DNA of 64,000 bases from a virus (Duplodnaviria > Heunggongvirae > Uroviricota > Caudoviricetes), in IMG/VR virus record IMGVR_UViG_3300031857_016701, positions 1 through 64,000 of that record; one strand, 5' to 3'. The notes below the pieces were generated by a model. The model saw only the letters and a list, made by a program, of their open reading frames with translations, was not told where the DNA came from and did not search any database. Below are positions 6,734 to 64,000 of this stretch, one piece after another; position 1 is the first letter of the stretch, and every line of letters begins with the position of its first letter. The position numbers and the translations under genes are program-made.

Positions 6734-6736
6734 TTT

Positions 6737-12998: not shown

Positions 12999-13001
12999 TT
13001 T

Positions 13002-23269: not shown

Positions 23270-23716
23270 CTAATCCAATTTATGAACAGTAGATTTATTT
23301 GACATATCTTTAATAGATACATAACCTTTTTTCTTTTTGTAATCTTCTAAAGCTGCACTTAAGGCTTCATGTGCGAGTACACTGCAATGAATTTTCACTG
23401 GAGGCAATCCACCTAAAGCATTTACGATATCATCATTGCTAAAACATCTTTCCAATTCATCAATTGATTTACCCTTGATTAGTTCAGTAGCCATAGATGA
23501 AGCAGCAATTGCACTACCACAACCAAAAGTCTTAAATCTAGCATCCATTACAGTTCCAGTAATATCATCAATTTTAAGACTAATTTTCATTATATCACCA
23601 CATGCTGCAGCACCAACTTCACCAACTGCATCTGCATCTTTTATATCACCCATATTACGTGGGTTCATAAAATGATCCATTACCGTTTTATTATATAGTG
23701 TATAAGATTCACTCAT
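23270..23716 (-). CDS. iscU: IscU/NifU-type Fe-S cluster assembly scaffold
   Basis: NPRNMG, GAAACGD, FKTFGCGSAIASS and HC motifs (three conserved Cys plus LPPVK). Confidence 0.8.
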   Translation of the reverse strand: MSESYTLYNKTVMDHFMNPRNMGDIKDADAVGEVGAAACGDIMKISLKIDDITGTVMDARFKTFGCGSAIAASSMATELIKGKSIDELERCFSNDDIVNALGGLPPVKIHCSVLAHEALSAALEDYKKKKGYVSIKDMSNKSTVHKLD

Positions 23717-24879
23717 AGTCCGATTTGTTTAAGATCGTTTTTGACCATTTTATCAACAAGTTGTTCAAATGAAGTTTCTGGTTTCCATCCCAGTTCTTTT
23801 CTAGCTTTGGTGCTATCACCTAGTAATAGGTCTACTTCAGCAGGTCTATAAAACTTAGGATTGATTTTAACCAAGACAGAAACTAATGGATCATATTTGA
23901 TAGCATCTTTTGTGGTAATACTAAACTCCATAGATTCAGCCTCTCCATGCCATCCACCATCAATATCAGCGGCTTTAAATGCATACCATACAAATTCCGC
24001 AATAGTATGTGTTTCATTACTGGAAAGTACATATTCTTCAATTTGCATGTTACTATCCATGTCAACTCTACATTTTTCTTGATTCATCATCAACCAAATG
24101 CCTTTGACAAAATCTTCAGCATCACTCCAATCTCTTCTAGCTTTTACATTTCCCAATTCAATTGGTTGAAATGATTTACCTTCAAGTATAGCTTTTTTGA
24201 TTCTAGCTACCCCTTTTGTAATTTTACGAGTAACAAATTCTTCTCCTCTTCTAGTGCCTTCGTGATTAAATAACAATCCTTGAATTGCATATAAATGATA
24301 CGATTCTCTATATACTTTTACCAATTGTCTAGCTGCAGATTTACTTGCTCCATATGGACTACGAGGTCTTGCAGGATGATTTTCATCTTGTGGTGTATAA
24401 ACAACATTGCCATATTCTTCACTACTACCTGCGTTATAAAATCTACATGATGGTTTGTGTTGACGAATTGCTTCAAGAATATGAATTACTCCAGTTGTAT
24501 TACATTCCCATGTTTGTGATGGAAAATCCCAACTACTACCAACGAATGTTTGAGCTGCCAAATTAATAAAATAATCTGGTTTCAATGATTCTACGATCTT
24601 ACTAATACTATGCGCATCACTTAAATCAAAATTTACCAAATGAAATCTTGGATTATTTTCTAAATGTCCAATGTTTTCATGATTTTTAATGCTTAATCGT
24701 CTGGCACCACCAAAAATTAAATAATCAGTAGTTTTAAGAAGAAAATCAACCATATGACTTCCATCTTGTCCAGTTACACCAGTAACAAATACAACTTTAT
24801 TATTACCGATTATATTTTTTGCATCATTGATATTCAATATTTCCATAGTAACCTCTTCATTTTTTGTAGTAAAAACCAT
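23713..24879 (-). CDS. gmd: GDP-mannose 4,6-dehydratase
   Basis: VTGVTGQDGSHMVDFLL Rossmann motif. YGASKSAAR (YxxxK). About 388 aa, colinear with Gmd. Confidence 0.8.
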   Translation of the reverse strand: MVFTTKNEEVTMEILNINDAKNIIGNNKVVFVTGVTGQDGSHMVDFLLKTTDYLIFGGARRLSIKNHENIGHLENNPRFHLVNFDLSDAHSISKIVESLKPDYFINLAAQTFVGSSWDFPSQTWECNTTGVIHILEAIRQHKPSCRFYNAGSSEEYGNVVYTPQDENHPARPRSPYGASKSAARQLVKVYRESYHLYAIQGLLFNHEGTRRGEEFVTRKITKGVARIKKAILEGKSFQPIELGNVKARRDWSDAEDFVKGIWLMMNQEKCRVDMDSNMQIEEYVLSSNETHTIAEFVWYAFKAADIDGGWHGEAESMEFSITTKDAIKYDPLVSVLVKINPKFYRPAEVDLLLGDSTKARKELGWKPETSFEQLVDKMVKNDLKQIGL

Positions 24880-24905: not shown

Positions 24906-25304
24906 ATGTATATATATGAATATATGGTTACAAAAGAAATTATATTGGATATATTAAATGATAAAGACAATTTTGTCAATATAGTAAAAGAATTTCCTGG
25001 TTTATATTCATCGTGTGTAACTATAAAACAAAATGTATCCAAAGAAAATGTTGATATAGCTATGAATAAAATACTGGCTTTTATAGATAAAAATGAAAAG
25101 TTCAAGAACTTAATTCAAAGTTTAATACCAAAAATAAAAGAAAAAGAAACCGAAAAGAATAGTGTATCAGGTCTTGTTCTTGAAATAGATAAAAACGATG
25201 AAAGTTATTCTAAACTAATAGAAAAATCCAAGAAAGAAAAATGGAATTACAAAGGACTTACTATTGTTGATGGATATGATAAATTGAAAGTATATTTTTA
25301 TTAA
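24906..25304 (+). CDS. hypothetical protein (132 aa)
   Basis: ORF. Confidence 0.3.
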   Translation: MYIYEYMVTKEIILDILNDKDNFVNIVKEFPGLYSSCVTIKQNVSKENVDIAMNKILAFIDKNEKFKNLIQSLIPKIKEKETEKNSVSGLVLEIDKNDESYSKLIEKSKKEKWNYKGLTIVDGYDKLKVYFY

Positions 25305-34951: not shown

Positions 34952-35656
34952 TTAGATTATAGTTTTGATTGGATGATAATAACCGTTGACATTTTTATCA
35001 AATGTAATATTTTCGTATTTCCAGTTAATGTAATTATCTGATTCAGTAAAAGGTTTTTGTAATGTATATCCTGATTGTTGTAATAACGTTCCTAATCTGA
35101 TTTCCGAAAACATATTATCGTATAATCTAGGATTATCATACATTCTATTTACCATTGATGATAATACTGATTTAGTAAAGAATAATCCTGACGTTGGTCC
35201 CATTCCTCCAATATTAGATGTAAGTTTTTGATTTTCGGATAGTTGTGTATACCAATACCAATCATTTAATTTTTCTTGTGGATATATCATATGACTAAAA
35301 TGAGTCATATTCAATGCATTACTATAAAAGGTTTCTAAAGAACAATTCGAATAGGTATCCCATTCTATCACTAAATAAGTTGGTAGATTTGGATAATTTA
35401 AATAAAAATCATATATCAATAAATCAGCTTCACTCCAGTATTCAATTTTCTTATTTTCGTTTAAAATATTATTTTTAGGATATAAGTCTTTTTTTGAAAC
35501 AATATGGGAACCACTAATTAAATTATGATTTTCAAATCCAACCGGATAAATATTTTTAGTTGGATTGTATTTTTTTAACAATTCATAATTTTGAATAGTT
35601 ACATCATTAACTGAATAATGTAAAAATAATATACATATTCTATTTTTTAGTATCAT
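34952..35656 (-). CDS. hypothetical protein, paralogue A of a tandem pair (glycan locus)
   Basis: Aligns with the next gene (NMFSEIRLGTLLQQSG / NMLSEIRGGTLVSQF; YHPIKTI / YHPYKYI). Start trimmed to MILKNRIC. Confidence 0.4.
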   Translation of the reverse strand: MILKNRICILFLHYSVNDVTIQNYELLKKYNPTKNIYPVGFENHNLISGSHIVSKKDLYPKNNILNENKKIEYWSEADLLIYDFYLNYPNLPTYLVIEWDTYSNCSLETFYSNALNMTHFSHMIYPQEKLNDWYWYTQLSENQKLTSNIGGMGPTSGLFFTKSVLSSMVNRMYDNPRLYDNMFSEIRLGTLLQQSGYTLQKPFTESDNYINWKYENITFDKNVNGYYHPIKTII

Positions 35657-35660
35657 ATTA

Positions 35661-36353
35661 TTAAATATATTTGTATGGGTGATAAAAATGAGGTATTTTC
35701 GTATCGATATTGATATCATCAACCGTCCAACTTATATATTTTTCAATATCATCTCGTCCACTTTTAAGAAATGTAAACTGACTTACTAATGTACCACCTC
35801 TAATTTCCGATAACATATTATCATATAAAGATTTATTTTTTAATATTTCTTCAGTACATTTTTTTAGAATATGATTTTTAAAATATATACATGTAGATTG
35901 TCCATATGAATGTAAATTATTAAATTTGTGATTATTTGGATTTAATTTTCTATATTGTTTCACCCACCACCATTCTTCATCTGCCGGACTTCGTATTCCA
36001 TTTCCAAAAAAATCAACATTTGTATCAAAAAATTCTTCTATACCAACATTACTAATTGTATCATATTCATATAAAAAATATTCATCATAATTTGGAAACT
36101 CAGAATAACCACTGTATAAAAAGAAATCGGGATTTGACCAATCTTCGGTGTGTAAATTGTCTATTTCAACCAATTCTTTGTTTTTAGGATATATTTCTCT
36201 ATTAACAAATAATGAATTTGGTAATAAATCATATCCACGGAATCCAACTGAAACAACATCCCATGTAGGATTTAATCGTTTAACAAGATTAAATCTATTA
36301 ATTGTCAATTCATCTACTTTATGATGACTAAATAATATAATCTTTGTATTCAT
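35661..36353 (-). CDS. hypothetical protein, paralogue B of the tandem pair
   Basis: See paralogue A. Confidence 0.4.
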   Translation of the reverse strand: MNTKIILFSHHKVDELTINRFNLVKRLNPTWDVVSVGFRGYDLLPNSLFVNREIYPKNKELVEIDNLHTEDWSNPDFFLYSGYSEFPNYDEYFLYEYDTISNVGIEEFFDTNVDFFGNGIRSPADEEWWWVKQYRKLNPNNHKFNNLHSYGQSTCIYFKNHILKKCTEEILKNKSLYDNMLSEIRGGTLVSQFTFLKSGRDDIEKYISWTVDDINIDTKIPHFYHPYKYI

Positions 36354-36356
36354 AGA

Positions 36357-37238
36357 TTAAATTATATATTTTATTGTATTTAACAATTTTCGTTTATTTT
36401 TCTCATTTACTTCCAAAAAATGATGTCTGATATTATCACAATTGTTTTTTTGAAATTCAAATAGATATTCTTTATTATTCAATGTATCTTCAAATTTTGA
36501 TTTATCTACAAAATAACCTTTTCTAAGTTTATATAGTGGATTTGATAAATATTCATAATTTATTACAGATGTATAAATTGATTTAATTGGAATAAATTTA
36601 ACCAAATTAGGATCTAAATATTCTTTAAATACAGGTATTTCACTGCAAATTACTAATTTACCACAACTCATTGCTTCCCATAAATAATGTCCCCATGCTT
36701 CATATAAGCTACAACATATATGAATGTTATGGTTATTAAGTTCATATACTAATTCATTTTCATTTAAATATTTATGATTAGCATCAAGAATATTAATTTT
36801 TTCTTTATAATTCCGAATCAATTCATGATTTTTTTGTATAGACTTTCCTTTTAAGAATAATATTTCTTTATTATTTTTTGTAAAAAAATATCTATCTAGA
36901 CTAAAAAATCCAGTAATAATTATATTTTTATGATATTGATCTAATATTGATTTGGCATATTTAGATTTAACAAATATATAATCAAAATTATGTAGATAAA
37001 TCAATTCATCATTAGACAACCACTCTTCATTTGGAATTAAAATATTAATTTTATTATCATTCATATATGTTTCATATATGTTTTGTATAAAAATTCCAAT
37101 ATCACTTTTTCTATTTATGATTTCTTTTGAAATATCGTATATAACCACATCAAATTCTTTTAAAACTTGAGTTAATAAAATTATGTCATTTTTTAAACCG
37201 ACTCCATTGTTCCAATAATATATGTTGACTTTAATCAT
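36357..37238 (-). CDS. GT4-like glycosyltransferase
   Basis: YEAWGHYLWEAMSCGKLVI (E-x7-E GT4 C-domain motif). Confidence 0.5.
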   Translation of the reverse strand: MIKVNIYYWNNGVGLKNDIILLTQVLKEFDVVIYDISKEIINRKSDIGIFIQNIYETYMNDNKINILIPNEEWLSNDELIYLHNFDYIFVKSKYAKSILDQYHKNIIITGFFSLDRYFFTKNNKEILFLKGKSIQKNHELIRNYKEKINILDANHKYLNENELVYELNNHNIHICCSLYEAWGHYLWEAMSCGKLVICSEIPVFKEYLDPNLVKFIPIKSIYTSVINYEYLSNPLYKLRKGYFVDKSKFEDTLNNKEYLFEFQKNNCDNIRHHFLEVNEKNKRKLLNTIKYII

Positions 37239-37278
37239 GATGTTTTACAATTTAAATTAAATAAAATTAAGATATTGT

Positions 37279-37947
37279 TTATACCGAATTGTATAAAAAT
37301 TTCATACATTCTTCATTTGTAACATAATGAAAAGAATATAAATTACTTATATCATTTGTATTATTTAATTTTGAATAGTCTCTACAACAGTTATCTTTGT
37401 TTATTAATTTAATGTTATTATTTCTAAAATTAATTCCAATACTTACATCAGTATATCCGAATTTAAAATTTTTAAAATTAATTTGTTTTATAATTTTACT
37501 ACTTATAAAAAATCCCGTCCCGCCGGCTATATAAGAAAAGTCTGAAGGTATATCTTTATGTTTAAATATTGGATTATCTGTGTTATTATTTTTATTTAAA
37601 ATATAACCGTAAACATTATCTTCATTAAAATTTTTAATCATTGTAAATACAAGTTTGTAATTTACAAAAGTATCATCATCAACAAAATACATCCATTTAT
37701 ATAAATCTAAAATATATTCGTTATTCTTTTTTATATTTATTAACGAATTTAAAATATTAATACCTTTTTCTTCATTACTACTATAACTATCATCGTCAGA
37801 TACTTTTATAATATTGTTATCTACATCATAATGATCTGAATAATACAAATGATCCATATGTTTTGCCCATGTATTTTTAACCGAAAGTATTCTTTCTTGA
37901 TTTTTATGGGTAGTTGATATTAGAACAAATAACATATTATCATACAT
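37279..37947 (-). CDS. Fringe-like / GT31-type glycosyltransferase
   Basis: WMYFVDDDTFV DxD motif in a Fringe-like context. Confidence 0.45.
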   Translation of the reverse strand: MYDNMLFVLISTTHKNQERILSVKNTWAKHMDHLYYSDHYDVDNNIIKVSDDDSYSSNEEKGINILNSLINIKKNNEYILDLYKWMYFVDDDTFVNYKLVFTMIKNFNEDNVYGYILNKNNNTDNPIFKHKDIPSDFSYIAGGTGFFISSKIIKQINFKNFKFGYTDVSIGINFRNNNIKLINKDNCCRDYSKLNNTNDISNLYSFHYVTNEECMKFLYNSV

Positions 37948-37976
37948 ATATATAAATTAATTATATTATTTTTTAT

Positions 37977-38678
37977 ATGAAATATTTTATTAATTATGCT
38001 GATAAGTTTTATTTTAAAAGTCAACTATTATCATTAAATTGTGCTAAAGACTTCGGATTCAAATGTCAATCATATTCAAAAAATGATATCGATAATGATT
38101 TTATTGAAAAAAATAAAATTATTATAGATTGTACGAGAGGGGCGGGATATTGGTTATGGAAACCATATTTAATTCTTAAAAAATTAAATGAAATAGACTA
38201 TGGTGAATATCTTGTCTATATGGATTCGGGTGCCAATTTTATTAAACCAGTAGATGATTTATTAGAAAGTATCGATGATAAGGGTATATTGGCGTTTCAA
38301 CTTAAAAATAATAAAAATAATAAATGGATAAAAGGAGATTGTTTTTTTGCAATAAATTCTATTAATGATGTATACAAATTTAAAGATGATGAACAAATAT
38401 TAGCATCATTTATTTTTTTCAGAAAAACCGATTTCTGTATAAATTTTGTTAAAAAGTGGTTATATTATGCAGAACAAAAAAACGTAATTATGGATTTACC
38501 AAATGTATTTTTTCCAAATTGTAATGGATTTATTGATCATAGACACGATCAAGCTATATTTTCATTATTGTGTTATAATTATAATATAACATGTATACCA
38601 GATATATCACAACACGGATTAATATATGATAATATAACAACGGATAGTGTTAGAATAAATCATCATAGGAATTCTTAA
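37977..38678 (+). CDS. hypothetical protein, possible GT-A-like transferase (233 aa)
   Basis: ORF on the opposite strand within the glycan locus. Confidence 0.3.
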   Translation: MKYFINYADKFYFKSQLLSLNCAKDFGFKCQSYSKNDIDNDFIEKNKIIIDCTRGAGYWLWKPYLILKKLNEIDYGEYLVYMDSGANFIKPVDDLLESIDDKGILAFQLKNNKNNKWIKGDCFFAINSINDVYKFKDDEQILASFIFFRKTDFCINFVKKWLYYAEQKNVIMDLPNVFFPNCNGFIDHRHDQAIFSLLCYNYNITCIPDISQHGLIYDNITTDSVRINHHRNS

Positions 38679-38690
38679 ATAGTTTATTTA

Positions 38691-39725
38691 CTAATTATTT
38701 AATATTTCTTCGGTTATATGCTCTAAATTTTTAGTAATTTTAAATTGAGGATAATCATTTTTTAATTTTGTTAAATCGCTATAATAACAAATATGATCTC
38801 CTTTTCTATTTTCATCTACATATTCGTAATTAAATTTTTTTCTGCCTATATGTTCCAACATTGATATACATTCTATGATTGAACATGAATTGGATTTACT
38901 TCCGCCAATATTATAAACAGCAGCAATTTGTGGATTGTTAATAAACAATTGCATGAAATTAACAACATCAAATGAATGTATATTATCACGTACTTGTTTT
39001 CCTTTATAACCATATATTTTGTATAAGGTATCGGATTTATAACATTTAACCAGATAATTTAAAAATCCGTGTAATTCTACACCACTATGATTTCTCCCAG
39101 TAAGACACCCACCACGTAAACAAACAGTTGGAATTTTAAAATATCTACCATATTCTTGCACTAAAATATCAGCTGCAACTTTTGATGCACCAAATAATGA
39201 ATGTGTTGAATGATCTATCGATAACATTTCAGAAATGCCATTATTAAAGTTATCATCGTCATAGTCATATCTAGTGTTCAATTCTTTCAATTTAATTTCA
39301 TTTGGTTTGTCACCATATACTTTATTAGTTGACATGTGAATAAACACGCAATCTTTATTAGTTTGTCTAGTTGATTCCAATAAATGTAACGTTCCATTAG
39401 CATTTGTTTCAAAATCATCAAATGGTATAGATGATGATTTATCATGACTTGGTTGTGCGGCAGTATGAATAACTACATCAAATTTAATGGTTTTAAAAAG
39501 GTTATTGACTTCTTGTTTATTACGTATATCAATAAAATAATTTCTAAAATTAGAATGTGTATTTATTAGAACATTAAGTCTATTTAAAGTGCTTCCTTTT
39601 TCACCGAAAAATATTTGACGTTGATTATTTTCGATACCATAAATTTTATGTCCTTGTGTTGCAAAATAACTAACTGCTTCTGATCCAATCAATCCTCCTG
39701 CGCCTGTTATTAACATTGTCTTCAT
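38691..39725 (-). CDS. NAD-dependent sugar epimerase/dehydratase (extended SDR). The catalytic Tyr of YxxxK is replaced by Phe.
   Basis: ITGAGGLIGS Rossmann motif. HTAAQPSHD. The motif reads LFGASKVAAD instead of YxxSK. Confidence 0.6.
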   Translation of the reverse strand: MKTMLITGAGGLIGSEAVSYFATQGHKIYGIENNQRQIFFGEKGSTLNRLNVLINTHSNFRNYFIDIRNKQEVNNLFKTIKFDVVIHTAAQPSHDKSSSIPFDDFETNANGTLHLLESTRQTNKDCVFIHMSTNKVYGDKPNEIKLKELNTRYDYDDDNFNNGISEMLSIDHSTHSLFGASKVAADILVQEYGRYFKIPTVCLRGGCLTGRNHSGVELHGFLNYLVKCYKSDTLYKIYGYKGKQVRDNIHSFDVVNFMQLFINNPQIAAVYNIGGSKSNSCSIIECISMLEHIGRKKFNYEYVDENRKGDHICYYSDLTKLKNDYPQFKITKNLEHITEEILNN

Positions 39726-40348
39726 TAAAAATTATTAATATAAATATCATCACATCCTAAAGAGATAACTTTTCTAAAGTTGTTTGATGATAACAATTCA
39801 TAGACATCATTGCTTTGATAGTTATTTTCTACAGATATAGATTTAATTTTAATGTTTTTAAAATCAATTGTTTTTAAAATGCAATATTCAGCTCCTTCAA
39901 CATCTAAACTTAGATAATCAATTTTATTACATTGATATTTTTTTATTATGTCTTGAAAAGTAATTGTTTGGACTTCTATAATTTCTACAGATTTACCATG
40001 TATAAGTAATTCATTAAAAATTCTACTTAAATGTTCGGGTTTTTGTTCACATAATAGTCCGCTTAATCCTTTTATGTATCCATCGCATGATAAAAATTTA
40101 AATATGCCTGATTCTTTATATATTGCTACATTTTCCACAGGAGATTTTCTTTTATTTTTTAAATTTTCTAATTCTTGTTTTCTTGGTTCAATTAATATTC
40201 CATTCCATCCCAAATCTTCAAAGAAAAAAGTGTTATTTTGATATTCGTGTTCAGACGCCCCAATATCTATAAAAAATCCATCTGTTACGTTTTTAAAAAA
40301 ATTTTCATATAAAAATTGATCTTGTTTATATTGACTTTTATATTTCAT
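39725..40348 (-). CDS. FkbM-family methyltransferase
   Basis: GFFIDIGASEHEYQNN FkbM signature. Confidence 0.5.
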   Translation of the reverse strand: MKYKSQYKQDQFLYENFFKNVTDGFFIDIGASEHEYQNNTFFFEDLGWNGILIEPRKQELENLKNKRKSPVENVAIYKESGIFKFLSCDGYIKGLSGLLCEQKPEHLSRIFNELLIHGKSVEIIEVQTITFQDIIKKYQCNKIDYLSLDVEGAEYCILKTIDFKNIKIKSISVENNYQSNDVYELLSSNNFRKVISLGCDDIYINNF

Positions 40349-41168
40349 TTAAATAATTTTCTTTTATGTATTTCCACGGATACAAAAATGGTTCTGCTTT
40401 AATAAAATTTTCTTTTATTACTTCAATTCTATCGTTATAATAATTAACATCTGTATAAGATAAAATATCAATTAATTCTTCTGGTTCTGTAAATAAAATT
40501 ATTCCATCTTTATTAAAATAATTAATAATCTCGGGATCTCCTTTGTAAATTGGTATAGTTCCTGTTCTAAAACAATCTAATATTTTTTCTGTAAAATATC
40601 CTTTTACAAAACAATTTTCTACTGCAATAGAATATCTGTAATCCTTATGCCATTTAAGTTTTTGTTCAACAGGATCTCCATATTTATAACCATCTAACAA
40701 TTTTTTTGTCAATTCAAAACACTTATGCCTAAAATGATGTCCGTCAGTCCATAGTTTAGATGAACAAACTATACTTGAATTTTTATTTTTTTCATATATT
40801 TTTTGTTCATTCAAAGGAATAAAATAAGAACCCCAAGGATACCAAAATCCATTTTGTATAGAATTACAAAAATCTCTATTATGTGAAAAAACTTTTTTAA
40901 ATTTAGTATTTTCTTTTATGGCTAGTTGATATATGTGCGGATGAATTACTTCTGGTTCCGTAATCCATAAGTAAATATTTTTTGATTTAAGTTGATTTAG
41001 ATAATTTAAAGCAGCTTTATCAGTAATGACAATATTTTCACTATTATTTAGTTCTTGTATTTCAAATGTGTGTTTAAAACAATAATTTAAATCTAACAAC
41101 TCCGCTTCTTTTTGAAAATTAACCGGATTTAAATTTGCTTCAAAATCAAAAAATAATATTTCTTTCAT
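40338..41168 (-). CDS. GT10 alpha-1,3-fucosyltransferase-like glycosyltransferase
   Basis: YRYSIAVENCFVKGYFTEKILD matches the GT10 FucT motif (YxFxLxFENSxxxxYxTEK). Confidence 0.5.
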   Translation of the reverse strand: MKEILFFDFEANLNPVNFQKEAELLDLNYCFKHTFEIQELNNSENIVITDKAALNYLNQLKSKNIYLWITEPEVIHPHIYQLAIKENTKFKKVFSHNRDFCNSIQNGFWYPWGSYFIPLNEQKIYEKNKNSSIVCSSKLWTDGHHFRHKCFELTKKLLDGYKYGDPVEQKLKWHKDYRYSIAVENCFVKGYFTEKILDCFRTGTIPIYKGDPEIINYFNKDGIILFTEPEELIDILSYTDVNYYNDRIEVIKENFIKAEPFLYPWKYIKENYLNEI

Positions 41169-41198
41169 TTTATAAAATATCTACAATATTAAACTCAT

Positions 41199-41855
41199 TC
41201 AAGTGGTTGTAAATTCATCAATAGAATGATTATTTTTTATAAACAAATCATAATTTTCTAAAGATGGTTTTGTTACAGTTTCAGTAAAAATGCCTGTTTG
41301 ATAAAAAAATGGTCTTGATAAACCATAGATATTATACTTATATTGTTCTTGTGATGTATAATAATCAATACCCATTCCATTTGGTTGACATATAACGGGA
41401 TACATTTTACCAATTTCTTTTAAAGAATTTAAATATTTGTCGGTTAAAAACAAAACAGCATGAAAACTAGTCATACAATTTAATTTAAAATACGAATCAT
41501 TATATTTTTCTAATTCAAAATTATAAAGCTTAGATTCTCCATTTTTAACACCCCATAATGAAGTTCCTAAATATATAGCATCAGAATCATCGGGGACATC
41601 GATATTTAATTTAAAATCTTCGGTCACAAAACAATCATCTTCTAATACTAATGCGGGTAATTTTATTTTATTCCACAATTTAATAAGTGATATGTCACAT
41701 CCAATAGGATGTGGTAAACAAATACCATGAAAAATTTCAAATGACAATTTATTTTTAAGTTGTAATGTTAATTGATTCAATCTTTCCACATTTTGTGGTA
41801 TTGTAAGTATGTAAACATTTATATTTTTTAAGTCAATTTTCATATTAACAATCAC
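41199..41855 (-). CDS. GT25-like glycosyltransferase
   Basis: YILTIPQNVERLNQL ... GCDISLIKLW ... LVLEDDCF. Confidence 0.45.
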   Translation of the reverse strand: MIVNMKIDLKNINVYILTIPQNVERLNQLTLQLKNKLSFEIFHGICLPHPIGCDISLIKLWNKIKLPALVLEDDCFVTEDFKLNIDVPDDSDAIYLGTSLWGVKNGESKLYNFELEKYNDSYFKLNCMTSFHAVLFLTDKYLNSLKEIGKMYPVICQPNGMGIDYYTSQEQYKYNIYGLSRPFFYQTGIFTETVTKPSLENYDLFIKNNHSIDEFTTT

Positions 41856-42624
41856 AATGTCTTATCTCAAATTTAATACAACCATATATATTAAACCCAA
41901 GTTTTTTTGCATTTTCAGAAAAACTAACTCCTTCTAATTTACAAGGAATTACATTTCCACATAAGTCTGTGTATTCGTCATCTACAAATAAATATCTTAA
42001 TCCACTATCAAAAACTTTACGATTAATAAATGCTGCACATTCACATCTTTCTAATTCTATTATTTCTTCGTTTGGAAATATATGAGTAAGTTCATACAAT
42101 CTAGTTACTTTACCATTTAAATTTGTATAAGATGCACAATCATGATATCCATATGTGTTATGTGTATATAAAGGCATTACAATATCTTTATTAAGTGATA
42201 ATAAATATTCTATTGAATTTTCTTGAAAATTTTCTACATCTATATCTAACCACCACAAATAATCATTATTTTTTAAATAATTATTCACGATAAAATTTCT
42301 TAAAATAACTAAATTATTAATTCTTTGTTGATAATGTTCAATTTGATACCTACATTCATGTTTTAACAAAAATCCTAAATCTAATTTTAAAATTGTAATA
42401 TCTTTATATTCATGTATAGGTATTTTCTTACTTATAATTTCATTTAATATACTCCAAGTATCATCTTCACTGTCATTTTCTATAAAACATAACGATATAT
42501 TTTCTTTTGGGTATGATAAATTATTAAGTTTATTCAAAAAATTATCTAAAAATTTAGCTCCATTTTTAACTGGAGTACCTATTAATATATTTTTATTATT
42601 CATAATGCCCATCCTTTTGCCCAA
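41845..42624 (-). CDS. GT2-like glycosyltransferase
   Basis: IGTPVKNGAKFL ... ENDSEDDT (GT-A N-terminal motifs). Confidence 0.4.
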   Translation of the reverse strand: MGKRMGIMNNKNILIGTPVKNGAKFLDNFLNKLNNLSYPKENISLCFIENDSEDDTWSILNEIISKKIPIHEYKDITILKLDLGFLLKHECRYQIEHYQQRINNLVILRNFIVNNYLKNNDYLWWLDIDVENFQENSIEYLLSLNKDIVMPLYTHNTYGYHDCASYTNLNGKVTRLYELTHIFPNEEIIELERCECAAFINRKVFDSGLRYLFVDDEYTDLCGNVIPCKLEGVSFSENAKKLGFNIYGCIKFEIRHCDC

Positions 42625-43247
42625 TGATGTACTGAATATGATTCAGGTGAAGTTATATTAAAATCCTCATTTCTTCTTTCCATTTCATACCAAGAATATG
42701 GATAAAAATATTTAATATCATAAAATTTATATGTTGGATTATTTAAATATGGATTTAAAAATTGTGTAAAAAATTCAGGACCACTAATTTTCCATATTTC
42801 ACTACTTACTTTACCGTTATAAGTAAATTTTTTAATGTTTTCTAATACAGAATCAACATAAAAGCTAACAAGAGATTCATTGACCTTAGATCCCATAATA
42901 CCTATTGCAATTTCATTATTAGGTTGATAACCTGAAAAAAAGTTGTAATTGAGTATTTCATCTGGCATTCTTTTTAATGGTTCAGTGTCCACATCAACAT
43001 ATATTCCTCCAAATTTTTCTAATATTTTAAATCTAAGTAAATCTGCTTTTAATCCAATATTATAATCACCATAATAATATTGTTTAATATCACTACTTAA
43101 AATATCAGTTGATTCAACTAATTGATTATCCCAAAAAATAAAATTATAATCTGGATATAAAATTTTCCACTTTTTTAAAAAATTAATATAATCGGAAGGA
43201 AATGGTTTATCACCTATCCATATATGATGTATGAATTTTGGTATCAT
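42600..43247 (-). CDS. GT32-type (DXD sugar-binding region) glycosyltransferase
   Basis: IPKFIHHIWIGDKPFP ... GGIYVDVDTEP. Confidence 0.55.
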   Translation of the reverse strand: MIPKFIHHIWIGDKPFPSDYINFLKKWKILYPDYNFIFWDNQLVESTDILSSDIKQYYYGDYNIGLKADLLRFKILEKFGGIYVDVDTEPLKRMPDEILNYNFFSGYQPNNEIAIGIMGSKVNESLVSFYVDSVLENIKKFTYNGKVSSEIWKISGPEFFTQFLNPYLNNPTYKFYDIKYFYPYSWYEMERRNEDFNITSPESYSVHHWAKGWAL

Positions 43248-43930
43248 ATATATTTTGAATCAAGTGTTAATGAATCAAATGTAGTATCATCAAAATCATA
43301 TTTATCAGGATTTCTTTGTTTTAGCAAACTTACTTGTTCAACTAATGGAGGCATAAACACATAATGTTTAAGTATCTTTAGTGTTTTCTTTTGTATTTGT
43401 ATATCAACTGCTGCCCAAGCTTGATGATTAGTATCAAGTAAAACTGGAATACTTGATTTTTTAATCATATAAGCATGTGTACACATAGGTGCATGTGTAG
43501 TTGTAATAATGTTATTAGTTACTTTTAATTGATAATCTTCTGGAGGTAAACAACAATGCCCAACAAAAACATATTGCCAATCATCAGGAAGTTGTTTTTT
43601 AAATTCTAAAAATCTTTCATGAAAATTTTCACATAAAAATGCATCATCTTCTAAGATAAGAATTTCTTCATGATGTAAATGCCAAAGAGTTTGCCATAAC
43701 ATATAATGAGACAATAAACATCCAATTCTACCTTGTTTAATAAAATAGTCATCTCCGTCTGGATTATCATCTTTATATGGTATTGTAGTTTTCAATCCAA
43801 ACTTTGTACCATTAATTCCTTCAAAAAATTCAACATCTAATCCATGTTGTTTAAAATGTTGTTCTGCATACTCTTTTCTTTTAGGAGTATCTTTCAATGT
43901 TAAACAAAATATTTTTGGTAAATTATTCAT
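43244..43930 (-). CDS. GT25 (LPS beta-1,4-galactosyltransferase Lic2A/LgtB-like) glycosyltransferase
   Basis: IFCLTLKDTPKRKEYAEQHF ... GRIGCLLSHYMLWQ ... LILEDDAF. Confidence 0.6.
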   Translation of the reverse strand: MNNLPKIFCLTLKDTPKRKEYAEQHFKQHGLDVEFFEGINGTKFGLKTTIPYKDDNPDGDDYFIKQGRIGCLLSHYMLWQTLWHLHHEEILILEDDAFLCENFHERFLEFKKQLPDDWQYVFVGHCCLPPEDYQLKVTNNIITTTHAPMCTHAYMIKKSSIPVLLDTNHQAWAAVDIQIQKKTLKILKHYVFMPPLVEQVSLLKQRNPDKYDFDDTTFDSLTLDSKYI

Positions 43931-44654
43931 TTTTATATATGTCTGTCCAATTACTTCCCCATTTTAATATTATTTCATGTAAACCATCATTAGAATAATA
44001 ATCTTGATTTGCATGCATATGAGTTCTGCCTCCAAAATGATCTACTCTACTATTATATACAATTCCGTTTGTAATAGATGAATCTTTTTGTTTAATATAA
44101 TTTAAATACAAATCAAAATCTTTATCTTGATAATGTGCTTTTATATTTTCATCCCATTTATAATTTGATGATCTTTTAAGACAATAAAACCAAGCGGGTA
44201 TATGAACTCTATTAATAAATATTTTTTTATACGTTACATCAGTTCGATATACATCATACAATGGTGGTTCCCAATCAAATGATTTTGTAAACGGTGAAAC
44301 TACAAACAAGTTATTAATAATATCAAACCAATTAATTAAATTATAATACCAATCATGTTGAAACATTAAATCACTATTAGCATACATTACATATTCATTG
44401 TTACATAATTTAGCACCTTCATTATATAATTTACTTAAATTAAAATCAAAAGGCATATATACAAAATTTTGTTTTTTTGATTGTACATAATCTTTAAATC
44501 TTGAATGTGAGTCAGAATCTGAATTGTTTTCAATAATCCACAGTTTACATTCATCAGGAGTATTTTTAACAAATGAATCTATCATTTCTACTTGAAATTC
44601 TTCAATCTTTTCATTTCTTGTAGAGCACGGCATTATTATATCAGAATATTTCAT
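43923..44654 (-). CDS. GT2-like glycosyltransferase
   Basis: LWIIENNSDSDS. GT-A N-terminal pattern. Confidence 0.4.
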   Translation of the reverse strand: MKYSDIIMPCSTRNEKIEEFQVEMIDSFVKNTPDECKLWIIENNSDSDSHSRFKDYVQSKKQNFVYMPFDFNLSKLYNEGAKLCNNEYVMYANSDLMFQHDWYYNLINWFDIINNLFVVSPFTKSFDWEPPLYDVYRTDVTYKKIFINRVHIPAWFYCLKRSSNYKWDENIKAHYQDKDFDLYLNYIKQKDSSITNGIVYNSRVDHFGGRTHMHANQDYYSNDGLHEIILKWGSNWTDIYKNE

Positions 44655-44698
44655 GTTTTTTGTCTTTTAATGATAAACAAAATATTTTTGGTACCATA

Positions 44699-45526
44699 TT
44701 AAAAATGATATTTATTTCTAAAAAATAAATAATTTATATCAGAAAAAGAATCTGAATGATGGTATATTTCCGGATAATTTTTGTTTCTTCCAATTTTTAA
44801 AATTTTATATTTATTAAAATCAATTAAATTTAATAAATCATTGTGATTATCTTCACAAAAATCATGAAGTTCAATCCAAAGATTTGGAGTATAATCTTTT
44901 AATATTTTTTTTGTTCCGTTTAATACTTTTATTTCTTCTCCTTCAGTATCTATTTTTATAATAGAATTATCTGTAATATCAGAATAAAAATTATCTAAAC
45001 ATAAAGTCTTACAATCTTTAATTGGTTGATATAAATCATTATTAAATCTATAAAAGTCTTCTTTACTAAATGTTTGTATTCCATTTTTATTAGAAACAAA
45101 AGCATTATAAATTTCTACATTTTTAATATTATTTAATTTAATATTTGTTTTCAAAATATTATAATTATTAGTATCTGGTTCGAGTGAAATTACTTTTTTT
45201 GCGATTCTTGAAAAATTAAGAGTATAATGTCCATGATGAGCACCAACATCAATTATAGTATCTATATTATTATTTAAATCAACATTCAATGTTTTATACA
45301 TTTCAATCAAATATGCATTTATATCATTTTGATTTGAAATATCATTCCAATCAATTTTATTATAAAAATATAATATACCATATAATATTTCCAGAGAAAT
45401 ATAATCTCTATATCCTTCATAGTCTTGTTCTCCTACATCATACCATATTTTTCCTGTTCCATCATCAATAAAAAAATTAAATTTATTGTGTGGCAATCCA
45501 CATCTTGTTTTTATTATTTTATTCAT
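44699..45526 (-). CDS. FkbM-family methyltransferase (second copy)
   Basis: IIDVGAHHGHYTLNF. Confidence 0.5.
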   Translation of the reverse strand: MNKIIKTRCGLPHNKFNFFIDDGTGKIWYDVGEQDYEGYRDYISLEILYGILYFYNKIDWNDISNQNDINAYLIEMYKTLNVDLNNNIDTIIDVGAHHGHYTLNFSRIAKKVISLEPDTNNYNILKTNIKLNNIKNVEIYNAFVSNKNGIQTFSKEDFYRFNNDLYQPIKDCKTLCLDNFYSDITDNSIIKIDTEGEEIKVLNGTKKILKDYTPNLWIELHDFCEDNHNDLLNLIDFNKYKILKIGRNKNYPEIYHHSDSFSDINYLFFRNKYHF

Positions 45527-46718
45527 TTTTATATAAATACATATTTAGGTTATCATTTTCAATTGTCTTGATACAATTGTAATTTTTTATTTCTATAATA
45601 TCTTTTCTAAAAATTAATATATAATTTGAATCAATATAATTTATAATATCAACATCACAATCTTTATTTATAACCAACAAATCTGTTTTTTGTTTTATTA
45701 TATCACTAGTATTTAATAGTTTTATACTAATATTATAATTAAAAAGATAATTTAAATGATGACATATATCATGACAAAGATCAAATTTATCATCGTATGA
45801 TATTAATTCTTTAGGATTTAAATGTAAAAGTAAACGAGACACATAAGCTCTTTGTGTTTTATATTCAACAATATTAGTTATGTTTAGTTCTTTTAATTTT
45901 AAAATTTCATCTACAAATGGATATATATAATTTTCTTTGTTGTATAGATTCAAATCTTTTATTTTGTTTTTGCTATATTCGATTTCGAATTTATATAAAT
46001 CTACATCTTTTTGATTTATACAATAATTGATTGTATTTTCATGTATATCATTAGCACTTAAATTGTTTTCTTTCCATTTAAAAAGAAAATAATATAAATT
46101 TCTTTGTTTAAAATCAGAATAATAAGGAGCAATCAAAACTTCTCCTGTTCCTCTTCTATTTCCGATTACTTCAGTTTCTTCACAATTATTTATATAACTT
46201 ATAGATTTGTAACCGATACAATTGTGAGAAATAGTTGAATTTGCTTTTTTTCTTATCGTTTCTGTCAAGTCTGAATCTTCATGGTAACATGGCCATATAT
46301 TATCATCAAATAATCCAACACATTTAATCCACTCTTTTGATGCTATAAATGATGCCCAATGATTACACCATATTAAATGAATATTATTATTTTTTTCTTC
46401 CGTAAATTTATTAAAAATTGATTCTAATGATGTGTTTTTAATAAAATAATTATCATCACACATAAATAAAATGTCTTCGTTTTGATTTAACTTAATAATT
46501 TCATTAGTTCCTCTACATGTACCATAATTATAAGCATTTTTAATTATGGTAATAGGTATATCAATTTTTTCTTTTAGATGATATCCGATTCCATTATCAC
46601 TAATATAAATTTGTTTTGGCCATACATTTTGTATAATAATATCTTTAATTAGATCATCCAAATAATCATACCGATTATATGTTATAATTCCGATAATAAA
46701 ATTTTTTGTTACATTCAT
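45519..46718 (-). CDS. GT2-family glycosyltransferase
   Basis: IGIITYNRYDYLDDLI ... MCDDN. Confidence 0.5.
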   Translation of the reverse strand: MNVTKNFIIGIITYNRYDYLDDLIKDIIIQNVWPKQIYISDNGIGYHLKEKIDIPITIIKNAYNYGTCRGTNEIIKLNQNEDILFMCDDNYFIKNTSLESIFNKFTEEKNNNIHLIWCNHWASFIASKEWIKCVGLFDDNIWPCYHEDSDLTETIRKKANSTISHNCIGYKSISYINNCEETEVIGNRRGTGEVLIAPYYSDFKQRNLYYFLFKWKENNLSANDIHENTINYCINQKDVDLYKFEIEYSKNKIKDLNLYNKENYIYPFVDEILKLKELNITNIVEYKTQRAYVSRLLLHLNPKELISYDDKFDLCHDICHHLNYLFNYNISIKLLNTSDIIKQKTDLLVINKDCDVDIINYIDSNYILIFRKDIIEIKNYNCIKTIENDNLNMYLYKNE

Positions 46719-49216
46719 ATCTTTATAATTCCTGTCTTTTCATCATTTAATCCGAAGCTAACAACAAATTTACCATCTTTTTCAATTGCACCACATGGAA
46801 AAACTACTAACGGACTAATTTCATCCAAAATTCTTTCATCTGCTTCATTTCCATGTAAAATTGGTTCACTATCAATATGAACAATTTTAAATGGAGGAAT
46901 ACTTTCAAATTTGTAATATCCCATAAAGTATTGTCTTTTAGGAAATCTCCAAGGTAAACTACTATGGAAAAAATTGTGGTAATATCCATCTTTTAATATT
47001 GGATTACTTCCCATTCTACATTCACCAAAAATCCATTCTTTACTAATATCATGAAAATTTTTATATTCGGTTATTACCTTATTTGTTTTTAAATCTACTT
47101 CAATAAGAACATGTGGATTCATTCTATATACAACCATTAAATTTCCATTATATATAAAGAAAGTCCAATTTTTTTGATGATTTTTATTTTCATTTATACT
47201 ATTTCCATTACCATCATATTCTATATGAATATTATCAATGTGATTGAAATTTTTATCAAATACTAATATTTTTTGATGTATAAATTTTACTTTATTAAAT
47301 TGATAATTAGCACACCCAACATAATATTTATTATCATGAACTAATACTCTAGGATCTTCATATTGTTCATTATCAATTTCATCGATAATTTTTAAATTCA
47401 AATCTTTTATTATATTATAGTTTTCATCCAATTCATATAATTTTAAAGTATTTTTAAACTTTTTAAATCCTATTAATATAGACTCTCTCGTCATTAATAA
47501 TAATTTATTATCATAACCTTTAAAAATACAAGAGTTAAAATAAAAGTTTTTATTTGTATATGGTAAATCTACAATTTTTACATCATTCGATTGATTGAAA
47601 ACACTATCTTGTAGTTTGGATGATATATATCCATGTAAATTTTTTTCAATTATATTATAGATATATTTATCAATATGATTGATATCTTTAATAGAAAATG
47701 TTTTAAACGTATTATCAATATAATTCACTTTAATATTAAATAATTTAAATGATAATTCTCTTTCATCATCTAACTCTGGCTTTATTTTTTTAGGAACAAA
47801 ATATGGTTGAAAAGTTTCTATTTTGGAACCTTCAATTGTAACTTTATTAATTCCATTATAAACTATTTTTCTTTCACCATTTATTTCTATAAATGTTTCT
47901 TTATCAAGAGATTCAAATTCTAATTCAATTGACTTTATTGAAGAATGATATATATAAAATTCACTTGATTTACCCATCCATCTAAATGGTATTTTATTAT
48001 CATATTCTATATCATGGAATCCGTTTCCAATTGATATCTGATATCTTTCATAGAATGTTTCATTTTTTCCAAATAATGTACAATTTAACAATTTACTGGC
48101 GTGTTTTTTATCTGCTATAGCCCATTTATATGTGTCGTCTAATTTAAATTGGAAAAAAACACTTTCATTTTTATCTAATGAATTAAGTTTATAATCCACT
48201 AAACCATCATAATCTTTACCTAGATATTCCGTATGTCCACCATAACCAGTAATAATTACTTTTTTATCATTATTAAACGCATCAAATGCACCTAAACAAA
48301 ATCCTTCGGTCTTAGTTAAATGAAAATAACAATCTCCGATATCATGTAAAGATTTAATTTCGTCATAATTTAAATTATCTTTAATATAAATGATTGGTGC
48401 ATGATTATATCCACTCGTTACTTTTATTATTTCTTCTACACATTTATCTTGTTCTTCTTTAGAATAATTTAATTTAAATGTTTTTACTATTAAAAGTACA
48501 TTATCATCTGATGTAAAGGTATTACAATATGATTCAATTGTATTTAGTATTCCTTTTCTTTCAATTAATTGACCTATACAATAAAATTTATAAGAATTTT
48601 CTAAATTTACAATATCATCGGATTTACATAAAATCATACTCTTAGATAAAAGATGTTTTAATCCAGTTTTTTTGTAAGGATAATCTACATAAATGTGTGG
48701 TTCAACTATAATAGGTTTAGTTACTCCACTATTAATAAAACACTTTTTGTTCCATTCAGTGGGTACGCTTACAATATCAACTATACTAGCATTAATAGAA
48801 TCAACCCAAGATGGTAATAATTTTTCAAATTCCCATACCGTTCTACCAATAAGAGTTTTTCCTTCTAAATTGACATTAGGAGCATTTTTAATTACATTAG
48901 TCCAAATATCAGGGGTAGAATGTACAATAATTGTATTGTAATTAATATTAACTGATGTACATGAATTTAAATATTGATGAAATCTATCATTTTCATTAAC
49001 TTCATCACTGCAATTAAAGTATTGAGTTTTTACAGGTATCTTTTTACTAATGTAGTCGTAGATATATCCTTTAGCCGCATTAGCATATCCACTAGTACCA
49101 TTCTGACAAATATACAATATAGATTTATCTTTATATAAAAAAGTATTAGCCATTGTAACATTATTCTTTCTAAAGATATAACTATGTAGTAAATTAAATT
49201 TGTCAGTAGAAACCAT
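46715..49216 (-). CDS. two-domain glycan enzyme: N-terminal GT4-like glycosyltransferase fused to a C-terminal GH130/DUF377-like (beta-propeller glycoside phosphorylase/transferase-like) domain
   Basis: EGFCLGAFDAFNNDKKVIITGYGG (E-x7-E). C-terminal half ends VVFPCGAIEKDGKFVVSFGLND, resembling the GH130 C-terminus. Size 833 aa. Confidence 0.4.
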   Translation of the reverse strand: MVSTDKFNLLHSYIFRKNNVTMANTFLYKDKSILYICQNGTSGYANAAKGYIYDYISKKIPVKTQYFNCSDEVNENDRFHQYLNSCTSVNINYNTIIVHSTPDIWTNVIKNAPNVNLEGKTLIGRTVWEFEKLLPSWVDSINASIVDIVSVPTEWNKKCFINSGVTKPIIVEPHIYVDYPYKKTGLKHLLSKSMILCKSDDIVNLENSYKFYCIGQLIERKGILNTIESYCNTFTSDDNVLLIVKTFKLNYSKEEQDKCVEEIIKVTSGYNHAPIIYIKDNLNYDEIKSLHDIGDCYFHLTKTEGFCLGAFDAFNNDKKVIITGYGGHTEYLGKDYDGLVDYKLNSLDKNESVFFQFKLDDTYKWAIADKKHASKLLNCTLFGKNETFYERYQISIGNGFHDIEYDNKIPFRWMGKSSEFYIYHSSIKSIELEFESLDKETFIEINGERKIVYNGINKVTIEGSKIETFQPYFVPKKIKPELDDERELSFKLFNIKVNYIDNTFKTFSIKDINHIDKYIYNIIEKNLHGYISSKLQDSVFNQSNDVKIVDLPYTNKNFYFNSCIFKGYDNKLLLMTRESILIGFKKFKNTLKLYELDENYNIIKDLNLKIIDEIDNEQYEDPRVLVHDNKYYVGCANYQFNKVKFIHQKILVFDKNFNHIDNIHIEYDGNGNSINENKNHQKNWTFFIYNGNLMVVYRMNPHVLIEVDLKTNKVITEYKNFHDISKEWIFGECRMGSNPILKDGYYHNFFHSSLPWRFPKRQYFMGYYKFESIPPFKIVHIDSEPILHGNEADERILDEISPLVVFPCGAIEKDGKFVVSFGLNDEKTGIIKI

Positions 49217-58393: not shown

Positions 58394-58397
58394 ATTT

Positions 58398-63351: not shown

Positions 63352-64000
63352 ATGAATAATATACTTGAATCAGTAAAATCTTATATTTTAGAAAAACAAT
63401 CAAATAAAAAATGGGAAGCAGGAAAAGATTGGGTCCAATACGCAGGACCATTCTTTGATGATAAAGAATATGTAGCAGCTATTCAATCATTATTAAATGA
63501 ATGGTTAGTCTTAGGACAAGATGCAATTACATTCGAAACAAATTTTCCCAAATTATTTAACAAAGAATATGGAATTCTTACAAATAGCGGTAGTAGTTCT
63601 AATTTATTGATGATGTTGGCAATGACATCAAAAAGATTATACAATCTACCAAAAGGAACCAAAGTAATTACTCCTATTGCAGGATTTCCTACTACTTTAA
63701 ATCCTATTTTTCAAGTGGGATTTGAACCAGTATTCGTTGATATTGATTTGGGTACACTTAATCTCAATTTAGATCAAGTCGAAGAAGCATCAAAGAAAGG
63801 TGCAAAAATTATTACATTTGCACATGTTTTGGGAAACCCACCAAATATGAATCGTTTAATGGAAATCATTAAACAATACAATTTAATTCTTCTAGAAGAC
63901 TGTTGTGATGCGCTTGGATCGACATATGATGGTAAACCATTAGGAAGTTTTGGTGAATTATCAAGTTGTAGTTTTTATCCAGCACATCATATGACGATGG
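63352..64000 (+). CDS. DegT/ColD/E1-family PLP-dependent sugar 3-dehydratase/aminotransferase (3' end truncated by the window)
   Basis: LTNSGSSSNLLMMLA, EDCCDALGSTYDGKPLG, SFYPAHH (His in place of the PLP Lys, as in ColD/E1 dehydratases). Confidence 0.55.
   Translation, partial: MNNILESVKSYILEKQSNKKWEAGKDWVQYAGPFFDDKEYVAAIQSLLNEWLVLGQDAITFETNFPKLFNKEYGILTNSGSSSNLLMMLAMTSKRLYNLPKGTKVITPIAGFPTTLNPIFQVGFEPVFVDIDLGTLNLNLDQVEEASKKGAKIITFAHVLGNPPNMNRLMEIIKQYNLILLEDCCDALGSTYDGKPLGSFGELSSCSFYPAHHMTM

Follow-up and report, generated by a model that had tools for sequence, protein, structure and literature searches.

An IscU-type iron-sulfur scaffold gene paired with gmd in an AT-rich, T4-like phage lineage of jumbo size

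The DNA analyzed here, referred to as the window, comprises positions 1 to 64,000 of the tailed-phage record IMGVR_UViG_3300031857_016701 (Caudoviricetes). On its reverse strand, at positions 23270..23716, it carries iscU, which starts with ATG and encodes a 148-aa iron-sulfur (Fe-S) cluster scaffold of the IscU/NifU_N type. Family and structure matches confirmed that this open reading frame (ORF) is a complete IscU-type scaffold with intact cluster ligands. The gene is an auxiliary metabolic gene: it lies among viral genes, it has been retained in a phage lineage under purifying selection, and it is sister to copies from Verrucomicrobia. We consider it fairly probable that the protein is a functional scaffold that plugs into the cysteine desulfurase of the host, and maybe into its chaperones, and so raises the Fe-S capacity available to phage proteins (a sugar dehydrase of the E1 type and a nuclease) and to host enzymes.

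In the Pfam search, PF01592 (NifU_N), which has a gathering score of 22, matched the phage protein with 161.8 bits over profile positions 2-124 of 127. The PHROG family phrog_8429 (NifU-like Fe-S cluster assembly protein) matched at 2.7e-36, and the solved IscU chains in the PDB matched at 1e-36 to 1e-39. When the protein was aligned to E. coli IscU (3LVL_A, 2L4X_A), Cys39, Asp41, Cys66, His110, and Cys111 corresponded to C37, D39, C63, H105, and C106, and L104PPVK108 corresponded to the chaperone-docking motif L99PPVK103. These five residues and the LPPVK motif were invariant in 121/121 aligned homologs, and the N-terminal Tyr residues are retained in the phage protein. A preliminary description of this DNA had proposed a complete IscU with three ligating cysteines and LPPVK; the PF01592 profile and the alignment, with Cys39, Cys66, and Cys111 all in place, bear this out. 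The fourth cysteine, C91, is variable among homologs and irrelevant. Residues 5-130 form the IscU core, while the C-terminal tail (131-148) is not conserved. SufU models cover only residues 6-90 and score 64 bits against a cut-off of 92.5, and the protein, which lacks the insertion typical of SufU, is therefore of the IscU type. The closest NCBIfam model is TIGR03419, "clostridial NifU". A 58-aa ORF at 23126-23302 on the forward strand is convergent with iscU, and the two share 33 nt in the non-conserved 3' tail of iscU. This small ORF is kept in relatives, with 85% identity in contig L006, and the gene calls of L161 and L423 include it.

The gene is well settled in viral genomes. Viral genes flank it on either side, and the exact 148-aa protein was recorded in 60 blocks of the sequence collection, in contigs of different sources and samples. 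A peptide pattern specific to this IscU clade was found in 58 IMG/VR contigs, all with 30-44% GC. Between the window and the relatives L001-L005, IscU is 85-95% identical and the GDP-mannose 4,6-dehydratase (GMD) encoded next to it is about 84% identical, the identity of the neighboring proteins being 40-70%. Pairwise Nei-Gojobori estimates among the phage copies gave ratios of nonsynonymous to synonymous substitutions (dN/dS) of 0.04-0.15 at dS values of 0.5-1.8. The phage iscU has a GC content of 33% and a GC content at third codon positions (GC3) of 17%; GC3 of the closest cellular copies is 75-86%. Since its composition is fully phage-like, its dN/dS is low, and it is conserved across contigs, iscU has long resided in the lineage under selection and is neither an assembly artifact nor a fresh passenger. 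Thus, the complete scaffold, the viral flanks, and the purifying selection across the phage lineage agree with the auxiliary metabolic gene that had been proposed. IscU-like matches are rare in records of cultured phages (15/50,697 INPHARED records), and several of these matches resemble contaminants, as they are in short unannotated records labelled as Listeria, Staphylococcus, or Salmonella phage.

Cellular homologs were scanned in one genome per GTDB species, and the closest cellular sequences named below are the closest among the matches listed. The top match was from a Pedosphaera metagenome-assembled genome (JANOQV010000169), with 81% identity over a 129-residue matched segment and 74.8% over the full length. 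The second, with 73% identity, was from a 717-kb Verrucomicrobiae contig (CAWEXI010000001), and the remaining cellular matches were at most 63% identical to the phage protein. In a neighbor-joining tree of 125 sequences, the phage clade had a bootstrap value of 92%, and the group of this clade, the two Verrucomicrobia sequences, and a sequence from a second viral contig (L007, also L254) had 96%. Both Verrucomicrobia loci have the order regulator-IscU-NifS and a GC content of 57-59%, and the regulator appears from its sequence to be of the Rrf2 type. One of the two loci also encodes proteins further downstream that resemble Mrp/ApbC and IscA/ErpA in sequence.

The second viral contig (IMGVR_UViG_3300032282_004893, 63.7 kb) is also AT-rich, with 34% GC, and belongs to a distant relative of the window phage; the neighbors of its iscU match PHROG families and two window proteins. 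Its IscU (L007:10001-10417) is 89% identical to the Pedosphaera protein, and the gene has no gmd upstream. With a GC3 of 35% it is less ameliorated, which suggests that the same bacterial group took part in a second exchange, one that was independent or more recent. Together, these relationships tentatively point to a Verrucomicrobia-like (Pedosphaera-like) donor of iscU. Verrucomicrobia might possibly also be the hosts of the phage, a suggestion that is equally tentative.

Directly upstream of iscU on the same strand is gmd (23713..24879), and its product matched PF16363 with 341.6 bits and TIGR01472 with 321 bits, the latter below the cut-off of 415. The TGA stop of gmd and the ATG of iscU share four nucleotides (ATGA), so the neighborhood with GMD that had been described is in fact a 4-nt overlap. 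Such an overlap suggests co-transcription and translational coupling, and gmd and iscU probably form one transcription unit. A pair of sigma-70-like hexamers (TTGACA-17-TAATAT, 24951..24979, reverse strand) about 70 nt upstream of the gmd start is a weak candidate for the promoter of this unit; sigma-70-like sites around gmd-iscU were not more frequent than in shuffled sequence. No terminator-like hairpin was found near iscU.

The pairing of the two genes was counted in the 58 contigs of the clade, 48 of which have enough upstream sequence for the test. On the same strand, gmd was found at most 60 nt upstream of iscU in 36 of the 48 testable contigs and at most 750 nt upstream in 42. In more distant relatives, the rest of the iscU neighborhood is reshuffled. 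The pair has thus been retained together while the genes around it were rearranged, hinting at a link to sugar metabolism. In L001, an RfbH-like match beside gmd was rejected, as it is a DegT aminotransferase with only 26% identity and not an E1 dehydrase.

A homolog of NifS/IscS was found within 10 kb of IscU in none of 80 viral loci, compared with 75 of 80 cellular loci, and the window, as far as it is annotated, showed no recognizable cysteine desulfurase. The phage scaffold would therefore have to work with the desulfurase of the host. Use of the host desulfurase fits the high similarity to cellular IscU and the retention of the N-terminal Tyr residues and LPPVK. As for possible recipients of clusters, none of the window ORFs that are 50 aa or longer contains a radical-SAM CX3CX2C or ferredoxin-type motif. 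Cys-rich window ORFs were also considered as Fe-S enzymes, but Pfam and PHROG scans identified them as zinc or HNH-type proteins instead. Two proteins of this phage do carry Fe-S signatures, a Cas4-like nuclease and an RfbH-like dehydrase.

The nuclease gene (55016..55924, forward strand) encodes a Cas4-like exonuclease of the RecB-family PD-(D/E)XK type, a candidate [4Fe-4S] client. It matched PF12705 (PDDEXK_1) with 64.5 bits, and its PHROG matches were phrog_69 (exonuclease, the best) and phrog_1706 (CRISPR/Cas system associated). Its cysteines Cys22, Cys283, Cys286, and Cys293 form an "iron staple" (C-Xn-C-X2-C-X6-C) that is conserved in at least 116 of 118 homologs, down to 54% identity, and the nuclease motifs D156, D171-x-K173, and Q192xxxY196 are conserved in the same set. 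An AlphaFold model of the protein had a mean confidence (pLDDT) of 89.9, and its best Foldseek matches in the PDB were the nuclease domains of AdnA, AddB, ACE1 (Cas4 family), Dna2, Exo5, and Cas4 SSO0001, with E-values of 1e-8 to 4e-4. All of these are known as iron-staple [4Fe-4S] nucleases. A sequence search against the PDB returned only chance matches to cytochrome c. The PF12705 match, the conserved cysteines, and the predicted fold substantiate the Cas4-like nuclease with a four-cysteine cluster that had been described. The phage protein shares the PD-(D/E)XK core, QxxxY, one N-terminal and three C-terminal cysteines, and the predicted fold with the iron-staple nucleases (Cas4 SSO0001, AddB, AdnA/AdnB, Dna2, Exo5, ACE1). 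Its cysteine spacing, C-X2-C-X6-C, differs from that of Cas4 and AddB, which is C-X2-C-X5-C. Unlike Cas4 proper, it belongs to a common phage exonuclease family (phrog_69) and has no CRISPR-cas neighborhood; its neighbors are the family-B DNA polymerase (PolB) and glycosyltransferases, without cas genes. Therefore, we call it Cas4-like rather than Cas4.

The second candidate, for a [2Fe-2S] cluster, is an rfbH/ddhC-like gene for an NDP-4-keto-6-deoxyhexose 3-dehydrase (E1) at 63352..64000 on the forward strand. It runs off the end of the window, which holds the 5' 216 of its 436 codons; the full gene is at L168:11057-12367, and the two proteins are identical over the 216 residues inside the window. 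RfbH matched NCBIfam NF011936 with 472.2 bits, above the equivalog cut-off of 423, and the Yersinia E1 structure 3BCX matched it at 2.9e-102. When RfbH was aligned to 3BCX and 3BB8 (the H220K mutant), His212 corresponded to H220, and C185, C243, C245, and C258 fell on the E1 cysteines. Only C185 and His212 are inside the window, the other three cysteines being read from L168. All five residues are invariant in 81 viral RfbH homologs. The cysteine motif of E1 was reportedly given by Agnihotri and colleagues in 2004 as C-X57-C-X1-C-X7-C, and was checked here only through the 3BCX alignment. The phage protein thus shares with E1 of Yersinia pseudotuberculosis (DdhC/RfbH/AscC, CDP-6-deoxy-L-threo-D-glycero-4-hexulose 3-dehydrase) the catalytic His in place of Lys, and its four cysteines align with Cys193, Cys251, Cys253, and Cys261, but it has a five-residue insertion before the fourth (C-X57-C-X1-C-X12-C). 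In E1 and SpnQ, a [2Fe-2S] cluster is bound by four cysteines, unlike in ColD, and the catalytic His replaces the Lys of aminotransferases (PMC8987622).

Downstream of rfbH in L168 are genes for a 4,6-dehydratase-like protein (dTDP-glucose type), a DJ-1/PfpI protein, a thiamine diphosphate (ThDP) enzyme of the acetolactate-synthase/YerE type, and a reductase. Among 80 viral rfbH loci, homologs of the dehydratase were nearby in 72, of the ThDP enzyme in 43, and of the reductase in 67; the dehydratase and reductase counts are maybe inflated by paralogue cross-hits (short-chain dehydrogenases/reductases), as was the case for GMD in the same search. This neighborhood suggests a phage pathway for 3,6-dideoxy or branched sugars. 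No E3 reductase ([2Fe-2S] flavoprotein) was recognized downstream of rfbH in L168. As in SpnQ, a host ferredoxin or flavodoxin would have to supply the electrons to the phage RfbH if no E3 gene is nearby. IscU and RfbH are encoded together in the window and on at least two other IMG/VR contigs (3300032116_015003, 3300020074_002050), and in the window rfbH is about 40 kb from iscU. Two short IMG/VR contigs labelled GVMAG (L182, L235) encode an rfbH 74-83% identical to the phage gene, and these contigs are probably pieces of phage genomes that were wrongly binned with giant viruses.

Between iscU and rfbH there is a glycan-synthesis island (34952..50166, reverse strand) with glycosyltransferases, methyltransferases, and an epimerase, identified by Pfam on the identical genes of L167 and L168. 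The GC content of this island is 21-25%, compared with about 30-33% elsewhere. Further sugar genes are at 56730-63342 on the forward strand. The two regions together encode at least 10 glycosyltransferases (GT1, GT2, GT10, GT25, GT61, Anp1, Fringe-like) and a 622-aa fusion of a sugar nucleotidyltransferase and a phosphatase. The gmd-iscU pair shares the functional theme of the island.

Taken together, we propose that large AT-rich T4-like phages (at least 215-248 kb) captured iscU long ago from a Verrucomicrobia-related bacterium. During infection, iscU and gmd would be co-expressed, and the phage IscU would dock on the IscS/NifS cysteine desulfurase of the host, since the phage has none of its own. 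A [2Fe-2S] cluster, and by coupling a [4Fe-4S] cluster, would be assembled on Cys39, Cys66, and Cys111 with Asp41 and His110, and passed to apo-proteins, possibly with the help of a host Hsp70-type chaperone that recognizes LPPVK. The effect would be an extra capacity for Fe-S assembly while host gene expression is taken over. The phage proteins likely to receive clusters are the E1-type sugar 3-dehydrase, with [2Fe-2S], and the Cas4-like nuclease, with [4Fe-4S]; Fe-S enzymes of the host would benefit too.

Several points weigh against this reading. The equivalog cut-offs of NCBIfam were not reached (TIGR03419 NifU_clost, 173.8 vs 187.9; TIGR01999 iscU, 148.6 vs 192.4), and the phage protein is therefore a divergent member of the NifU_N domain family and not a textbook ortholog of either equivalog. 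Neither the 64-kb window nor the flanks of the relatives yielded a desulfurase, an A-type carrier, a ferredoxin, or HscAB. The link to Verrucomicrobia rests on two cellular sequences among the matches listed, and those contigs have 57-59% GC while the phage has about 30%. Moreover, no virion structural gene was identified within the 64-kb window, although one relative has a tail-fiber "Collar" domain. Finally, Cas4-like and E1-like genes occur in phages without an IscU match in INPHARED, and thus a phage IscU is not required by either candidate client.

Other roles for IscU have to be weighed against that of a general scaffold. Its main job could be the [2Fe-2S] loading of the phage E1 dehydrase, and perhaps of other redox partners in 3,6-dideoxy or branched-sugar synthesis, for glycosylation of the virion or remodelling of the host surface. 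The gmd-iscU adjacency in 42 of 48 testable contigs despite reshuffling of the other neighbors speaks for this, as do the dominance of sugar-nucleotide and glycosyltransferase genes in the window, an RfbH above the equivalog cut-off with its four cysteines and catalytic His intact, and the YerE-like ThDP enzyme, 4,6-dehydratase-like, and reductase-like genes that accompany rfbH. Against it, GMD works without an Fe-S cluster, iscU and rfbH are separated by 40 kb, no E3-type reductase was found downstream of rfbH in L168, and cultured cyanophages have E1 homologs (41% identity) without an IscU match. We regard such a dedicated role as unlikely, although it is the likeliest of the alternatives. 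We would also place little confidence in a more far-reaching form of the idea, in which the jumbo-phage lineage has permanently coupled the captured iscU to a sugar-nucleotide pathway through a gmd-iscU operon in order to metallate E1/RfbH, and in which the IscU tree identifies Verrucomicrobia as the host. The preliminary description had instead drawn attention to the Cas4-like nuclease and suggested that IscU may secure clusters for phage Fe-S enzymes during infection or under iron limitation; in this version, the nuclease would be the main recipient, especially when iron is limiting. The conserved iron staple and a predicted fold of the AddB/AdnA/Cas4/Dna2 class speak for it, and in marine viral genomes described before, cas4 and radical-SAM genes accompany IscU or A-type carriers (PMC5332604). 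A specific link is not supported, as all that connects the two genes is the genome they share: they are 31 kb apart on opposite strands, none of 80 viral IscU loci had a Cas4-like gene within 10 kb, and Cas4-like exonucleases (phrog_69) are widespread among phages, in contrast to the rare IscU. We therefore think it improbable that the nuclease is what IscU mainly supplies.

The protein could also act on the host rather than on clients of the phage. As a decoy it would bind the host IscS/NifS and divert sulfur from tRNA thiolation or from the synthesis of thiamine or molybdenum cofactor; as a regulator it would shift the Fe-S status sensed by the Rrf2/IscR repressor of the host and so reprogram host metabolism. 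The phage carries the scaffold only, the closest cellular operons begin with an Rrf2-family regulator, and the surface-exposed N-terminal Tyr residues and LPPVK are kept, which makes binding to host partners plausible. But a pure decoy would not need the three Cys, the Asp, and the His that are invariant under strong purifying selection, and we know of no precedent for a phage IscU with such a role; we consider it very doubtful. One might suspect that an assembly error placed cellular DNA in a viral contig, or that iscU is a recent and functionless pick-up, since IscU is normally a cellular housekeeping gene and several INPHARED matches look like contaminants. This is effectively refuted by the identical protein in 60 blocks and the 58 IMG/VR contigs of 30-44% GC, together with the phage-like composition (GC 33%, GC3 17%), the dN/dS of 0.04-0.15, and the phage genes on both sides. 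The functional scaffold that serves phage and host enzymes alike is thus the reading we prefer.

The rest of the window shows what kind of phage carries the gene. Its GC content is about 30%, and it encodes a T4-type PolB (phrog_262, 596 bits) whose closest cultured relative is that of Microcystis phage Mel-JY01 (45%), followed by those of T4-like cyanophages and pelagiphages (about 30%). Family matches also identified an RNA ligase, an ATP-dependent DNA ligase, thymidylate synthase, and dihydrofolate reductase. Furthermore, there are an SNF2 helicase, homing endonucleases of the HNH and GIY-YIG types, and an AAA+ protein whose Pfam domains (RuvB_N, AAA, DNA_pol3_delta2) are of the clamp-loader type. 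A block for NAD+ salvage and ADP-ribose (10064-14491, forward strand) contains an NMNAT-Nudix fusion, NAMPT, a macro-domain protein, phosphoribosyl pyrophosphate synthetase, and nucleoside 2-deoxyribosyltransferase. No tRNA was found in the window. Independent contigs of IMG/VR, JGI, ENA, and NCBI have the same gene order, and contigs of relatives reach 216 kb in ENA (ERZ27280272 k141_845310) and 248 kb in JGI (3300027754 Ga0209596_1000004), so the lineage is of jumbo size. IMG/VR contigs of the lineage reach 171-173 kb. A megablast search of window positions 1-25000 against INPHARED gave no match, indicating that the phage has no close cultured relative. We accept an AT-rich, T4-like phage lineage of jumbo size as the source, with the caveat that the window shows no virion structural gene.

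Some genes of this genome are unusual cargo, namely those for an SPFH/Band-7 protein (41-805), a SpoU-family RNA methyltransferase (9416-9949), and a cREC_REC-domain protein (18185-18565), all on the forward strand. The thymidylate synthase gene has been swapped: the window encodes a 380-aa enzyme (16674-17816, forward strand), whereas L161, which is otherwise 95-98% identical to the window at the DNA level, encodes a 287-aa ThyA at the same position (L161:15117-15980) that is about 28% identical. This difference is a xenologous replacement between near-identical phage genomes. Homing endonuclease genes are also polymorphic among such genomes. The GIY-YIG/NUMOD3 ORF at 21247-22023 on the reverse strand is present in the window and L163 and absent from L161, and L162 and L164 have a different NUMOD3 ORF at 5817-6776, inserted after the SNF2 helicase gene. 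The most variable stretch among the near-identical contigs, as judged from blastn gaps, is a 676-aa ORF at 29399-31429 (forward strand) that contains no Cys and has no Pfam or PHROG match. Its counterparts are 736-741 aa long in L161 and L162, and in L163 the ORF is split. It is possibly a receptor-binding or tail-fiber protein.

Fe-S clusters serve many enzymes of replication, repair, and biosynthesis, and a scaffold carried by a phage points to cluster assembly as a limit during infection. The present case adds a cargo that consists of the scaffold and never of the desulfurase, strong selection, and a concrete candidate client, the E1-type [2Fe-2S] dehydrase, in a large phage glycan pathway. 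It also adds a second evolutionary source of viral IscU, one that is Verrucomicrobia-like and offers a host lead for an uncultured jumbo-phage lineage. If IscU were dedicated to glycan synthesis, the virus would provide the cofactor-assembly machinery for its own biosynthetic enzyme, which goes beyond boosting the metabolism of the host, and the products would be 3,6-dideoxy or branched sugars for glycans of the virion or the host surface.

Viral iscU/nifU auxiliary genes are already established, and they are known to occur together with viral cas4 and radical-SAM genes (PMC5332604); this general picture is unchanged. Among marine viral genomes, IscU has been described in six and A-type carriers in 14, with co-occurring viral cas4, radical-SAM, grx, and paaD genes (Nishimura 2017, PMC5332604). 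In that study, the marine viral copies clustered with gammaproteobacterial IscU, and the IscU tree was used to propose SAR86 as host (PMC5332604). Viral iscU/nifU had been reported from viromes before (Sharon 2011 and Hurwitz 2015, as cited in PMC5332604), and it has also been found in HMO-2011-type phages (PMC9038755), in viromes of oxygen-minimum zones (PMC8940887), and, as nifU, in soil viruses (PMC13149639). In limited literature searches, we found no prior description of a Verrucomicrobia-like origin, a conserved gmd-iscU pair in jumbo phages, or an E1-type candidate client.

The phage IscU matches the structural references from E. coli (3LVL, 2L4X), Aquifex (2Z7E), and Methanothrix (7C8M) at 1e-38 to 1e-39. 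It has the same ligand set, LPPVK motif, and core length as the proteins of the minimal Rrf2-IscU-NifS/IscS type of bacterial locus (JANOQV010000169, CAWEXI010000001). In contrast to that type, the phage locus has no adjacent desulfurase or regulator, and its codons are fully AT-ameliorated. Proteins of the phage clade also differ from the bacterial ones in two small insertions (KIDDxTGTV vs KIKDGKI; ELEKNF vs EAMNF) and in a variable C-terminal tail. Like the published viral IscU/NifU genes, iscU of the window phage encodes a stand-alone NifU_N/IscU scaffold in a tailed phage without a desulfurase. As in those cases, it occurs alongside genes for phage Fe-S proteins such as cas4 and is read as boosting the cluster supply, and the gene tree serves as a hint to the host. 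However, the published marine copies cluster with gammaproteobacterial (e.g. SAR86) IscU, whereas the copy of the window phage is sister to Verrucomicrobia (Pedosphaera-like) IscU. It differs from them further in belonging to an AT-rich lineage of jumbo size, in its conserved pairing with gmd, and in having an E1-type dehydrase on the same contig.

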